Source: Sphyrna mokarran (Eukaryota). Taken from it: a stretch of DNA of 64,000 bases. Position numbers and translations under genes: made by a program. The DNA is taken from the NCBI GenBank assembly GCA_024679065.1, contig JAGIQG010000004.1, positions 99,324,001-99,388,000 on the forward strand. Reading direction: 5' to 3'. The notes below the pieces were generated by a model, which was not told where the DNA came from, ran no database searches, and was given only the letters and a program-made list of their open reading frames with translations. This document shows, piece by piece, positions 3,530-61,168 of the stretch (its first letter is position 1; every line of letters begins with the position of its first letter).

Positions 3530-3661
3530 GTTTAACTGCTGCAGCAATGGCTGAAGCGATGAAGTTACAAAAACTGAAACTTGCGACGATGAATAATCTC
3601 CATGGTAATGGTAGTCAAAATGGCACTGAGTCTGAGAATGAAGAACTGAATTCTAGCACAG
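3530..3661 (+). CDS. DACH2: Dachshund homolog 2, internal coding exon (132 nt, phase 1-1)
   Basis: Acceptor ttttcatcatttgtttgttag|GT and donor ACAG|gtgagt. Encodes GLTAAAMAEAMKLQKLKLATMNNLHGNGSQNGTESENEELNSST, matching recalled human DACH2 GITAAAMAEAMKLQKMKLMAMNTLQGNGSQNGTESEPDDLNSNT. It lacks the DACH1 poly-Ala run. Confidence 0.95.
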
Positions 3662-45900: not shown

Positions 45901-47596
45901 CCCTTATGTAATAGTCAGAACTCTACAGAGAAGAAATTTAATTCATATTATCATCAAAAATAATCAGTCTTCAAATCTGTAATGAAAAACACCACCTGCT
46001 TGTTTACCCACAGATCTCTATCTGCATAATGAGCAATCTCATGCACATTGATTTTAAGATTTCTCTATTACCAATTTAATGTGTTCTCATTTTAAATACG
46101 ACGCACCAGTATGCAATAAAAATATTAATTTCCAACATGACTACTCCACTGAGCATCACCAGTACATTCTGTTCAAACAACTGAATGGATATATTACTCC
46201 ACCAATACTTAAATAATTGGAAGATGATTGCGAAAAAAAATAAAAATTTGAATTGGTAGCATTTTCCAAATTGTATCACTTTGTAGGACACATTTCTTTG
46301 ATACTGTATATTTATAAATCTAAAATACCATAAAGAATATGAATAATAGAAAATCTTGATGAATATTAAACTAGATGTCACTGTGTATTACTGTACCCAA
46401 CAATGCAAGTATAATGGATATAATAATATCATACAAGTTATTTCACTTTGCCTTTTGGATATTTTTTATTATTTATCTTTCCTGGTATTCTTTATTGTAA
46501 ATACTTCCTGATTCCAGAAGAATGGATTAAATTGACACTCTAAGTTATGAGACCCCAAAAGAAACTTAGTTTCTGCCCCAATTATTTAACTTTGCTTAAC
46601 ATTTCAGGAAGCTTACACTAACCACTCTCCTACTGCAAAGGTCCATATAAAGGGGCTGGGGAAGATGCATTTTGTTATCAGAATGCAGAACATATTGCTG
46701 CTCTTACACCACTGCACAATACATTGTCCTGACATTGGCCAGTACCAAACAATGATAAGGTCCTGTTGAAATGAATAGCGTTAATTCAGAAAAGCTGCAT
46801 TTCACAGGCCATTGAGTAAACCTGCGATGGTTGTTGCTGAAAGTGCATCTTAAAGGAGAAACACAACTGTAATGATCAAGGTAATGGTGAATTTAATCTG
46901 GAGAGATAGATAAATGGTGTACTGGCCTTGATCAAGTTTTGAACATCTTTCTTACAACGTGGCACATTAATAGATTATCAGGAATACACCAATAATGCTT
47001 ACCCAAAAGTGACAAAAATATATTTGTATCATGCTCAAAAATTACAGCTTTATTTTTTAAAAGAAAACATCTGAAATAAGTGTGGGATCAGCTTTCCAAG
47101 TATCTTTATTCATATGACAGATCTTGAAACAGATATTACTATACAAATATTTTAGTTGGCAAGTGGCATAAAAAGAACAATGAAATCTTATCTAAAGTGT
47201 AATTTTGTCAAATGATGAATTATCTTTTTAAAAGATAAATAACTATTTGACATGTAAAGCCCTCATGCTGCAAATAAATTGAACAAAAGCTGAACTGAAA
47301 TTTCAGGCTAACTAAACTTGCTTAAAGTATACGTATTGTAGATCTCACATTGCCTATTTGAACACCAAGTATTAGAGCTACTACTGATAAAATGTAACAC
47401 TATTAACAGGATGTTATGATAGTCACAGATAATCTTACAAAACACATCTCCACAAAATATCAGCTTACTTTCTCTGTTTCATATTCACACACTGTACTTG
47501 TGAACTCAATTGCTCAGTCTGCCAAGATGAGGAAGCAAGTGTTCTCCAGTTGTGTTTAATTACCTAATTTATGATCCATTTGTTCAAGCACTTCAA

Positions 47597-47752
47597 GTGG
47601 AAGTAAATCTTGGTGGGGCAAAGAGAAACTCCAGTCACCCACTACCAGAGGGTCAGAAGACGTTGTCAACCATGTCACACTGTCTAGTCAATACAATTTC
47701 TCAGCCACACACCTGTTTAGCCTATACCAACAGAATTGAGCCAAGAGTAAAG
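47597..47752 (+). pseudogene. DACH2: Decayed DACH2 cassette exon (pseudo-exon)
   Basis: Translates in phase 1 as (G)GSKSWWGKEKLQSPTTRGSEDVVNHVTLSSQYNFSATHLFSLYQQN*AKSK. Recalled human DACH2 is GGSESSWDKDKMQSPFAAPGPQHGIAHAALAGQPGIGGAPTLNPLQQNHLLTN. Position and strand are correct. The acceptor reads cttcaa|GTGGA instead of cag|GTGGA, there is a TGA at 47737-47739, and there is no GT at the expected donor. Confidence 0.8.
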
Positions 47753-50050
47753 TATAGTTTACACGTATCTTTTCTTTTAGGCCTGCAAAGACCTGTGTAT
47801 GTGTGTGTGTTGATGACAGCCAAACTAAGTCATCTATAAACATAAGAATATTAAAGGATGTAAAAGTGGTTGGAGAGCATGACTACTTGGTAAAAGGACC
47901 ATTTCACACTGCAGGAACCACACTTCCAAAACATTCAGAGGAGGAGAGGAGCGAAAAGGAGAAAAACTGGAACATAAACAGAATTAACTCATGGCTAAAG
48001 CACAATTTGTGTTGCTTTCTTGTATCTTCCAGCACAGTGACTAAACTGTTTACATATTAAGGCGAGAACAATAATACTGGAGTGACATTATGTAGCTCAG
48101 TTCATAATACACCTTAAGCATAACTGTCAATCATTGAAAATACTCTCTGTAGCTAACCCTTCAGCAAGAATCACAACTGTCAATAGCAAGCTCACGAGGA
48201 ATTCCCTGGCCTGCTGGGAGGGGAGGATTTATAACCAGTCATGAACACAGGGATCCTCATTCTTAGCAGCAATTAGTTTAACACCCATGGGCCTCCTTGG
48301 GAACTCCAAACAACTCATCACATCATCAGTACAATCTGGTACATTAAAACACGATTTGATGCCGATTTGTAAACACTATAATTATAGGGAAATGACTCGC
48401 TATACAAATGTAATTTAACATTGTGATTTATATATCTAGGTGTGAAATTATATGTGAACTGGACATTGTAGTGACACAGAAGGTTGAATCTAACTTTTTC
48501 TGGTCGTTGAGACTATAGCCATGAATTGTAGTGTGTGTTTATTTCTATGCTATTGAACTACCAGTGTATAGTTGATCAAGAACCAAAGATGTAATGAAAG
48601 GCTGTTTTTATTGCTTAAATAGTTATCTTCACCATGCTGCTGTTATTTAGTTTCCAATTACAGTAACGAGGAATGATCAGAAGTAAATGAGTTAGGTAGA
48701 GAACAAAGGTTCTGCACATAAATTGCAAAAGAGAAAGTTACACCAAGATTGCTCCTGCACAGGTCTAATTTAGTAGAGTTGAAAAGAATGGGGACATGTT
48801 TAGTTTCTTAAAATGCAAGCCTAGCCTGCTACAGCTACTGATTTGGCCAATGAGAATGTTATGGTTCAGGCTTTCCCTCAACATTTTGCCTCGCTGACTT
48901 TCCTATTGTAATGTTGTGCATGGATGGGTTCATATTTACTGCCAGAACAGAACTCTATGAGATTATTCAATCCAAGAGGTCTCTAAAGGCAGAGCTGCCC
49001 ATCATCCATAATTAAACAGTTCAGACAGTTACACTGAAGCCTGATGAGTAGGTGCTCATACTTCATCTGCTTTCTGAACACCTGTTAATACTACTGCCAT
49101 ATACAGCCAAATTAGAACAAATCCTCTGTAACCAATTTCCCGACTGACCTGGTCTTGTCCCGTTTACAATTACACACAATTTTCAATTCCTGGCACAGAA
49201 TTCTGGTATCGTGGAATTGGAGCCAACAGAATTTTTGATGGAACTCAGGTTTTGGCCTTGTTCACAAAGCCATGGTAAATTTTGATTGGTGAAGATTGTA
49301 ACACGTAGTTTTTCTGCCTGCCCTGTAGCAATGTTTGGGGACTTTGTTGGGTTATCCCAAAAACCCCATTAAGATACATTTCCAATAGACTCAAGGGTAA
49401 ATATATCTTGATAAAGGTCTCCCATTGGTTACTTATTTCTTTGTAATGATCGTCTCAGCTCAGATTGGATCTTGAACTTTATCTCCATAATGACACTGCA
49501 ACCAATAGCCCATGCTGGTTAAATGAGTGCTAGAGGATAATTGGAGCAATAGTAGGTGTGATTCTGGGCTGTTTATGGGCTCTATTCTTTACTATCTTAC
49601 AAACACCATCAATCAGACTTTTTTTGTATTGTGAACTCAGAATCAAGTGGGCTAGTAACTGTATACAAAGTACATCATAGTCCATTATTATACATTTAAT
49701 ATATCATAAAAAAAATTAAGCTTCAAAACAACATCAAATGAAGATATTGTGGCCGATTTGCATTCAAATCTGATGGTGGAAACGAAGTGCGTGCCTATTT
49801 AAAATAGGCAGTCTACTTATCCATTCAAAATTTGATTATTTTAACTTTCAGGTAGTTGGATGCATCACTGTTTGAAGAAGGCAGCAGCACATGAATGTAT
49901 GCAAATTGAGGTATAATCCCATCAGAAGAATCTTTACTGAATTTGAATATACTTTAGAATAAAATCTTCGATCTTCCAAAAACAATATATCTTGTCCTGC
50001 TGTCATCCTCACTTGAACTCTGTTATTCTGGATACCATAACCTAGTTTCC

Positions 50051-52569: not shown

Positions 52570-52742
52570 GATTAGAGTTGCCATTCATGATGATGCCCCA
52601 CCCCCTCATCCCTGTCAGCCTACCTCCTGCATCGGTTACCATGGCAATGAGCCAGATGAGTCACCTCAGCACCATAGCTAACATGGCAGTGGCAGCCCAA
52701 ATGCACAGTCCCCTTTCCCGAGCAGGAGCTTCTGTTATTAAG
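52570..52742 (+). CDS. DACH2: Dachshund homolog 2, internal coding exon (173 nt, phase 1-0)
   Basis: Acceptor polypyrimidine tract then atataaaag|GA, and donor AAG|gtaagc. Encodes GLELPFMMMPHPLIPVSLPPASVTMAMSQMSHLSTIANMAVAAQMHSPLSRAGASVIK; HSPLSRAG is DACH2-type. Confidence 0.95.
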
Positions 52743-58205: not shown

Positions 58206-61032
58206 CAAATTAGACATGATAAGGTATGAAATAAATGTAAGTCTTTTGTTTGAAGCACGGGATAGATTTAAACCTGGATTCAGAGACAGCTGCAAACCAC
58301 TTTGGGGACATGACCATTGCACTTAGTTTATTTTGGAAAAGGGAAATTCTTAGCTCAGATTGAGATTTGTGTTTCTCTAACAAGCAGTCGCTGTAATGCA
58401 TGAAGGAACAAGGTCTTGTACTAGAATGAAACATAGAAATTTAAGGTGGTTAAAGTTTTAATTAGCTAAAACATCCTATTAAATAATAGAACCTATGCAC
58501 TGCTATGCAATCTGTTAAGTATTTAGTGCACTACCCCTTTAAGATTAGATACATTAGCGGTTTTCATATTTAAATTGCTAGAATGTGAGACTATCAGGGA
58601 TTAGCACCTGCTTACTAGCCAGATAGTTTATTAAAATAACACCATTTACTAATGCAATTTATTTTATACTCATTCAGGATATTTGTGCCAAATAGTCAGT
58701 TAGTTCATTCTGCTTAAACTCTGCTTATTTCCTGTGAGGGTCAAAAGGGTCATGATGAAAATACATGATCTCACTCCTTTTGTTGGCCATGCATTACTTG
58801 CAAAAACTTCTTCACTGAACATTATTTGTAATAAATGGACCATACAATGAACACATATTGGTTATGTTTGTTATCATACGATGGGGATTTGATTTCATCC
58901 TTATATGACTCAAAATTAATTTTTGCATTCCTGGATTTGCTGCTGTGAGCAGGACTTAACCCTTAGATCTCCAACAGCTTTGGGGAATTCCAGTTTTCCC
59001 TGATTGAAACATTTAAAAGTACATTCAGCTTACATTGAAATAAAGCTTGGGTGTTAAGAGTAGCTTAAAAGAAAACACACAGGATGCAATCAAGAATACA
59101 TTTTAAACAATTTTACTGGTTCTGTCTTTTTCTCTTCATCCTCTTTTACCTTGATCTATCCAAGATGAAGTAAGAGTCTCAGAGATTGGGGAAACCCATT
59201 CATGAACCCTCTGCACAACAGACAGAAAACAACTAAAATCTTGTTATTGTGTAGAGAACCTCTCTCACAACTTGAGTGTCCCACCTCTTACTTACTGCCC
59301 CACTTTTCCTTGCCTCACTCATGACTAACTTTTCTCTGAACTTTGTCCTTCTTTTCCCTTCTTCTTTGCCCTAAGCTCCGACTACGTTGTAGAAATTTGA
59401 TTTTTTCCTCTTCCTTCTCTCCATCAATCCAGATTTCTACACTTTTTCTCAGGACATGAAAACAGATGTTGCCCTTACCTCCCTCAGATTTCTGCTCCTC
59501 CTGTGATCCATACAGTTTTAGAGCATGTAGTGGGTGCCACTCTATCACTACTTCCAAATTACCTTCATCTTCCCTTGCACTATTTTCAGCCTCAGTCTTG
59601 TCACATGATATTGGCCTTCACTTCAGTTACTCAATTTTAATAAAAATACATCTGTTTTATTTATAACTAATATAACCATTTCATTTCGAGTTTAAAATAT
59701 CCTTTTTGCAAGCTTCCTCAGTCGCAACATGCATTTGGAGGTGGGGCCCAATTGGAAACCGTTGGCTTCTCCCTGACTGGGAATTGGCTCTGGGAGTTCC
59801 ATCCATCAAATCCAGGATGTTGTTATGGGTATGAAATGAGCCAATTCTGACTAACTTCACCCACAGCTGAATGATGTCTGACCAAAGCCTGACTGCAGCA
59901 ACTTTAGGCATCAAGCTTGTTGAGGTTTGACAACACCATTCTCAAAAGATCCATTTTCTTCGTAGAATCATTTCAGCTGTAATGCAAATCTGTCTCCACT
60001 TTATCTAGACAAGATCTCCATTTTTCTCCATCTGAAAAATATGAAGATCCATTTTCTGTGAAACATTCATCTAAACAGTATCACATGTGTGGTTTGTAAA
60101 AGCTATGTTAAACAACTGCTTTGCGTGGTATCTCTGTCACATTATTCATTTTTCCCCCTATTGTGTCTATTTTTTTACCTTCAGCCATTTCAATGGAAAG
60201 TTGCAAACATAGAACTTAAATGATATGCTCTGTTTTGAGTTGGAGTTGCCCATCTACGGGGAGGATTTTCTTCTTAAAATGGAGCAATTCATTTCTAACC
60301 AAGCCTCCATCCTGCAGATTCCCAAAAATTGGTGATTTTCTTTCCCCTCATCAACAGCACCAGAGTTCAAATGTCAGATTGACATTCACATTTTTATATT
60401 TTTGGGAGTCCCACACAAGCTCACAAATCACTGTCTGAGCAATGTTCATTGATTAACTTTATTTTCGCTCAGAAATATTACATTAGCACATGCAGGGTGT
60501 ATATGTTTTTGGATTTACTCATGTTGGTATCCAGGCTACATGGACCAAAAAATATTGGAAATGGAAATAATTCACTATATTAAACAAACATGGGTGAGAG
60601 AAAGGATGTTACTTTTCATATCTGAATTATAAAATGGGATCAGTAAACTTTACTCTGATAAATAAATTATTTTTCAATAGCGATGTTTTATAGTGTTGTA
60701 GGTAAATTGATGCCTTTGGGATGTGTTAATGGTAAATAATTTATTGACTAGATTTAAATATAAGTAAGCAGAAAGTACCCCAATGATCATTTAATAAAGA
60801 ACAGAATATTTTGATTTGACCTGTATTTGAGTAGAAATATGTTGAAATGTTTAATGACGGTATTTTCCACAGTAACATCAGTAGTAAGAAAATATTTAAA
60901 TATGTATATACAAACGTGAATGAATAATGAAAATTAACCTTGTATTTCGGAATGTAGGGAATGCCACTACAAGCCAGTAAAGATTACACTCATCTACTTG
61001 GACAACCTCTTGAATTTTTGTTCTGCCACCAG

Positions 61033-61168
61033 GAGCGGGTTCATAATAGCCCATCCCCAGCACCATCCCTTGAAGACAGTCACCGGCCTGGAAGTCATCC
61101 CTCTTCACACCAGAGCAGCAGTGTGTCTAGCTCACCATCCCAACATGACATTGCCTCTGACAGAATAT
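61033..61168 (+). CDS. DACH2: Dachshund homolog 2, internal coding exon (136 nt, phase 0-1)
   Basis: Acceptor tttttgttctgccaccag|GAG and donor ATAT|gtaagc. Encodes ERVHNSPSPAPSLEDSHRPGSHPSSHQSSSVSSSPSQHDIASDRI. Confidence 0.95.

Follow-up and report, generated by a model that had tools for sequence, protein, structure and literature searches.

The 64-kb stretch of shark DNA analysed here (the window) holds part of the DACH2 gene, and between two intact exons of this gene lies a sequence that can be read as protein up to an in-frame stop codon. The sequence-only reading had taken it for a fossil DACH2 cassette exon, fixed in the skipped state in this lineage, and had named as the alternative a poison exon that is still spliced. 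Here we ask which of the two it is, what became of its splice sites and how far the loss extends among cartilaginous fishes.

Exons in the window were found by tblastn and their splice sites were read from the DNA. Three intact exons frame the locus (a slash marks a splice junction):

3530..3661, forward strand: upstream DACH2 exon, intact, phase 1-1, translating to LTAAAM...LNSST, with the donor CAG/GTGAGT
52570..52742, forward strand: downstream DACH2 exon, intact, translating to LELPFMMM...SVIK, with a shifted-frame TAG 167 nt before the exon end
60958..61168, forward strand: next DACH2 exon, intact, starting at 61033 from its main acceptor or, in frame and with 25 aa more, at 60958 from an alternative one

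All 43 residues of the upstream exon are identical to those of the Mustelus, Scyliorhinus, Heptranchias and Rhincodon proteins, and all 57 of the downstream exon to shark and ray proteins named 'dachshund a', with 86-88% identity to bony-vertebrate DACH2. The orthology call rests on such named DACH2/dachshund a matches, no named DACH1 protein being among the listed hits. The three exons together encode the same residues as in Mustelus and two Scyliorhinus species and are 1-3 residues off other sharks, so that the animal would probably be a carcharhiniform. No neighbouring gene was found inside the 64-kb window. The 25 residues encoded by 60958-61032 (GMPLQ...FCHQ) are conserved at 21-25 of 25 positions in shark and ray isoforms, and are absent from one Callorhinchus isoform compared. 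Some isoforms of sharks and rays leave out the upstream exon as well (junction PGIISPTG/LELPF), so that the linker contains at least three alternative events. Isoform X1 of Scyliorhinus canicula (P0229) carries a 47-residue insert ahead of the upstream exon, for which the window gave no tblastn match and whose DNA may lie 5' of window base 1.

The sequence in question sits in the 48.9-kb intron that follows the upstream exon, 4.8 kb 5' of the downstream one, and the frame from 47599 translates to GSKSWWGKEKLQSP...QQN followed by a stop. Sawshark, sawfish, skate and chimaera proteins have 52 additional residues between the segments encoded by the two flanking exons. When these intact proteins were used as tblastn queries against the window, they matched 47614-47736 with 61-68% identity over 41 aa (E 4e-12 to 3e-10; 68% at E 4e-12), and the same queries recovered the flanking exons at 86-100%. 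A profile built from seven intact exons gave a single match when the window was searched in all six frames, at 47599-47736 (iE 5e-18, the next best at iE 2). Thus, neither a second nor an intact copy of the cassette exon was found in the window or the whole intron by the six-frame profile search, and the relic is not repeated. It has the position, strand and phase of the cassette exon and lies between orthologous flanking exons. Among 1.84 billion protein representatives the relic found four matches, the only alignable one being the intact sawshark protein P0122; P0247 and P0248 were rejected as homologues, as they are tandem-repeat proteins with scores summed from weak matches, and P0249 is the remaining one. 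A further search with the relic among proteins of 82-2000 aa returned seven candidates, none of which scored; this search is insensitive, since known homologues exist. No tandem repeat was found within 46500-48500 and no Rfam family in the window. The stretch 47597-47746 is homologous, and corresponds in position, to the 156-nt cassette exon of DACH2 (dachshund a), and the proposal of a fossil exon was thereby borne out by similarity, position and phase, as was the absence of an intact copy from the intron.

The lesions were read against two metagenome contigs with intact exons and splice sites, L001 and L002, and in four public sequencing runs. They are as follows:

47597..47746, forward strand: decayed DACH2 cassette exon of 150 nt (156 minus a 6-nt deletion)
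47595..47596, forward strand: ancestral acceptor, AG changed to AA; CAG stands at this place in the intact L001 and L002, AA in all four runs
47737..47739, forward strand: in-frame TGA where 6 nt were deleted, one stop in place of three residues (H-L-L/I); present in all four runs
47747..47752, forward strand: ancestral donor GTAAAG, with A at -1 and A at +5 (intact L001: A at -1, G at +5); GT in all four runs

Both reference exons are 156 nt long and of phase 1-1; CAG precedes them and GTACG follows. That of L001 is identical to bird DACH2 in 51/51 residues and ends in ACC AAC A/GTACGT; with a 6-nt gap, window 47740-47749 agrees with this end in 8 of 10 letters, as against 3 of 18 ungapped. 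An end motif of the L001 type occurs three times on this strand in the 64 kb. In two of the relatives, X14 and X18, a C at 47745 yields Ala-Asn-split Arg directly before the GT at 47747. A gap-free alignment of 156 nt was rejected: towards the 3' end it takes 10 or more substitutions where one deletion and 1-2 substitutions suffice. The gapped alignment to L001 and the C at 47745 therefore place the relic at 47597-47746 and make GT 47747 the ancestral donor.

These data confirmed the loss of the acceptor and revised the rest of the anatomy that had been proposed. The extent of 156 nt has to be shortened to 150 nt by the deletion. A TGA does stand where His was expected, but it marks the 6-nt deletion and not a changed His codon. 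Likewise, 47753-47754 is indeed TA, but by the alignment 47753 is intron position +7 and not a donor position, and the GT at 47747, which the sequence-only reading had used for its poison exon, is the ancestral donor and not a cryptic one, retained in all four runs. The loss of the donor may still be functionally true, GT 47747 being weakened at +5. The window donor, AGA/GTAAAG, lacks G at both -1 and +5; in the accessible text of PMC1934990, G at -1 is present in 97.5% of donor sites without +5 G. The donor letters suggest that the change at +5 may have come from one inserted A.

As compared to the intact DACH2/dachshund a exon (P0049, P0062, P0042, L001), the relic shares position, phase 1-1 and donor position, with 31/46 residues identical to the sawshark form and 85/140 nt to L001, but differs in having AA for AG, the 6-nt deletion, the TGA and no +5 G. 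It shows 16-19 residue differences in 48 codons from the sawshark, sawfish and chimaera exons. L002, which we take to be the DACH1-type paralogue, has a paralogous exon of the same length class (156 nt) and phase that matches the relic in 83/140 nt and 21/46 residues. The L002 exon is intact, however, and ends in Pro-Asn-G/GT, whereas the 3' end of the relic and its flanking exons follow DACH2; the best match of L002 to named DACH2 proteins is 34/51.

The four runs, out of 22 listed public ones, were compared over 47430-47920; all four are contigs, and RNA is on record for none. X1 is identical to the window in 491/491 bases and may be its own source. X6, X14 and X18 are three other organisms from three other studies, and the listing covers 7 of the 9 letters that differ in the main piece of X6, 15 of 19 in that of X14 and 17 of 21 in that of X18. 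For all three, the AA, TGA and GT sites are free of listed differences and no 6-nt insertion is present. In X14 the frame is broken again by a 14-nt tandem duplication behind 47725, which contains a TGA.

Twelve listed sites vary within the relic among the four sharks, 10 of them nonsynonymous and two synonymous, which corresponds to an omega of ~1.5. The probability of this outcome is 0.45 under an omega of 1, 0.11 under 0.5 and 0.019 under 0.3. Coding constraint on the relic has thus been released; an omega of 0.3 or less is rejected, and 0.5 is compatible with the data. The relic varies at 12/150 listed sites as against 12/174 in the downstream intron (p 0.83), that is, it changes at the intron rate, like a dead exon. 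When the changes were polarised by hand with the intact exon, the branch to the window species took about 10 of the 12 substitutions and that to X18 took one; within the relic, these related sharks differ strongly in rate.

The slowest relic, that of X18, differs in 14/48 residues. Dating the death of the exon by amino-acid change was rejected, as intact ray exons are as divergent as this relic. Against Callorhinchus, 14 of 52 residues differ in the intact exon of Mobula, 11 in Hypanus/Hemitrygon, 10 in Amblyraja and eight in a turtle, so that protein divergence by itself gives no date for the loss. The downstream exon of the divergent rays (P0044, P0043, P0056) shows 1-2 differences only. Judged from these residues, the intact exon is probably under relaxed selection in Mobula, Hypanus/Hemitrygon and Amblyraja. 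A Ser>Leu change at codon 5 is common to the intact Mobula exon and three relics, and relaxation may have come before the death of the exon. The shark mutation rate is low according to the accessible part of PMC10587355, and a relic that stays legible for long is plausible at such a rate. The earlier suggestion that slow shark evolution kept the relic legible fits that report to this extent.

How the exon is distributed was read from annotated isoforms. These are predictions, those of one species are not independent of each other, and a decay-sensitive transcript would escape them; the chondrichthyan counts leave out the fragments P0237 and P0241, which do not cover the region. In chimaera, rays and sawshark the exon is present in 37/61 isoforms: Callorhinchus 5/6, Pristiophorus 10/15, Narcine 3/5, Pristis 3/4, Rhinoraja 6/9, Amblyraja 7/10, Hypanus/Hemitrygon 2/5 and Mobula 1/4. 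The three isoforms of Leucoraja (P0013, P0018, P0029; isoform X1 is not among them) and the five of Heptranchias (P0005, P0010, P0223-P0225) are without it. Among galeomorphs (10 species) none of 39 annotated isoforms includes the exon, and the skip junction occurs in all species. In a set of 138 bony-vertebrate proteins, enriched for inclusion by the query, 117 include the exon, 14 skip it and seven are unclear. Isoforms that skip the exon were present in all eight exon-bearing chondrichthyan groups, and skip isoforms of DACH2 occur in chimaera, rays, sawshark, chicken, turtles, a swift and a carp. Skip isoforms of DACH2 itself thus extend across jawed vertebrates, and the shark fixed an old option. 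Exons 3530-3661 and 52570-52742 joined directly are in frame, as had been noted from the sequence, and the junction reads LNSSTGLELPFM. The proposal that this lineage has fixed the skipped isoform therefore stands in so far as the skip is in frame and the cassette very probably dead; its account of skipping, given for DACH1, is incomplete, since DACH2 too has long had the skipped form.

One early loss in galeomorphs would be the simplest reading of these counts, and its basis in DNA is the four related sharks. Both trees given in the accessible text of bioRxiv 10.64898/2026.02.13.705779 place Heptranchias outside the galeomorphs, so that the absence of its exon, if real, is a second loss. The absences in Heptranchias and Leucoraja are possibly further independent losses, or annotation gaps.

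The relic is very probably a dead cassette exon in a gene that now makes only the skip form, the exon being, as we infer, absent from the mRNA. The course of events would be as follows. Ancestral jawed vertebrates would have had a 156-nt phase 1-1 DACH2 exon that was spliced in or out, and in an ancestor of the window shark and its three relatives inclusion would have ceased. Perhaps in this order, the acceptor AG would have become AA, six bases would have been deleted with TGA arising at the site, and the donor would have been left without +5 G. The spliceosome would now join 3661 to 52570, a protein shorter by 52 residues would be the sole product, and the remnant would drift as intron sequence. 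Two observations speak against a dead exon. The four runs show no change in the branch-like motif, in either AG or in the GT, and a fully dead site need not keep these; and the sequence immediately 5' of the relic varies less than the relic itself. This flank is:

47455..47596, forward strand: intronic flank upstream of the relic, 3 listed variable sites in 142 nt among the four sharks

Against the 12/150 sites of the relic this gives a Fisher p of 0.03, post hoc and uncorrected. The wider flank has 3/167 variable sites (p 0.015), and the 142 nt are what is left after dropping 25 bases with probably hidden differences. The flank is also less variable than the downstream intron and may be a conserved non-coding element. 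One explanation is that the exon is dead as coding sequence while the flank is kept separately, as an enhancer or splicing element, which would have aided the persistence of the relic. This is compatible with the dead-exon reading, and besides the low variation the flank occurs as a single copy in the window. We hold it to be unlikely, though by no means negligible: the difference is one post hoc comparison of four genomes in which differences near piece ends are hidden, and the flank shows no similarity to that of the paralogue (189/200 shuffles score as well; L001 begins 6 nt before its exon). About 350 nt 5' of the relic lies an AT-rich inverted repeat, 47206-47252 (-12.8 kcal/mol, z -3.45, 1/200 shuffles as good), perhaps a small transposon remnant.

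The remnant could instead be spliced as a poison exon, from the AG at 47596-47597 or that at 47587-47588 to the donor at 47747, with nonsense-mediated decay (NMD) tuning the DACH2 dose. The elements involved, in addition to the donor, are:

47564..47568, forward strand: branch-point-like CTAAT (candidate), 28 nt 5' of the ancestral acceptor, without a listed difference in the four runs
47587..47588, forward strand: second candidate acceptor, an upstream AG that would give a 158-nt exon and a frameshift
47596..47597, forward strand: shifted AG that would give a 149-nt exon (47598-47746) and a frameshift

Both acceptors shift the frame by +2 and lead to the TAG 167 nt before the next junction. 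NMD is set off by stops that precede a later junction by more than 50-55 nt, and the position of this one agrees with a poison exon. The AGs, the CTAAT and the GT are without listed difference in 4/4 runs, the upstream flank is less variable, and since a poison exon requires no coding constraint, an omega near 1 is expected from it as well. However, the six unchanged bases are expected anyway at ~7% divergence, the donor is without G at -1 and +5, and the polypyrimidine tract amounts to 60% as against 75% at the three used acceptors (two of the windows being a few bases off). Conservation also speaks against it: the poison exons reported in the accessible parts of PMC11357089 and PMC4379411 are as conserved as coding sequence or more so, and the relic is not conserved above its intron (p 0.83). 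Nor was a relic-bearing protein found among the seven candidates of the weak search or the 1.84 billion representatives. The poison exon, which the sequence-only reading had offered as its alternative, thus agrees with the position of the stop and fails on conservation, and we regard it as improbable. In the fullest form of this reading, a one-base shift of the acceptor would have made a regulated poison exon out of a galeomorph coding cassette, reusing the ancestral branch point and donor of an exon that predates the DACH1/DACH2 split, with Heptranchias, stingrays, devil rays and skates independently letting the coding form decay; the chance that this whole scenario is right is quite small.

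It is highly improbable that the gene yields a working truncated protein that stops at the TGA, with the N-terminal SKI/SNO/DAC domain and without the C-terminal part. The 46 open codons after the split Gly up to the stop are kept in 4/4 runs, but the frame requires splicing at AA, which is not an acceptor, omega is ~1.5, and neither the seven weakly searched candidates nor the 1.84 billion representatives held such a protein. An assembly error or a private allele of the sequenced animal would have been conceivable from X1, the sole near-identical run and possibly the source of the window, but its chance is negligible, since the AA, the TGA and the length of the 3' end are common to X6, X14 and X18, which excludes an assembly error.

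For a dead cassette exon there are parallels. That single lineages lose alternative exons has been described (PMC2231371, as far as its accessible text goes). There, as here, outgroups retain the exon and one lineage has lost it from an otherwise intact gene. The described losses concern human, mouse and dog, whereas the present one concerns cartilaginous fish and an exon common to both DACH paralogues, and its remnant, unlike those described, can still be aligned codon by codon. With the poison exons of SMNDC1 and SRSF4/5/6, as presented in the accessible parts of PMC11357089 and PMC4379411, the relic would share, on inclusion from the shifted acceptor, a stop well before the downstream junction; it differs from them in being conserved no better than its intron, in its weak donor and in its host, a transcription cofactor and not a splicing factor. 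In literature on DACH1/DACH2 splicing and isoforms and on sharks and elasmobranchs we found no report of this exon in sharks, although supplementary exon-loss tables could list it, and no function of the 52-residue segment or phenotype of its loss.

The relic is a clear but ordinary case of exon loss; its importance would be much greater if the remnant is truly spliced as a poison exon. It provides a legible, datable series of lesions for the death of a cassette exon, and the shared lesions, together with a possible second loss in Heptranchias, are usable as phylogenetic characters. For the biology of the gene, it means that a large group of sharks can do without a linker segment of 52 residues that is ~80% identical from chimaera to turtle.
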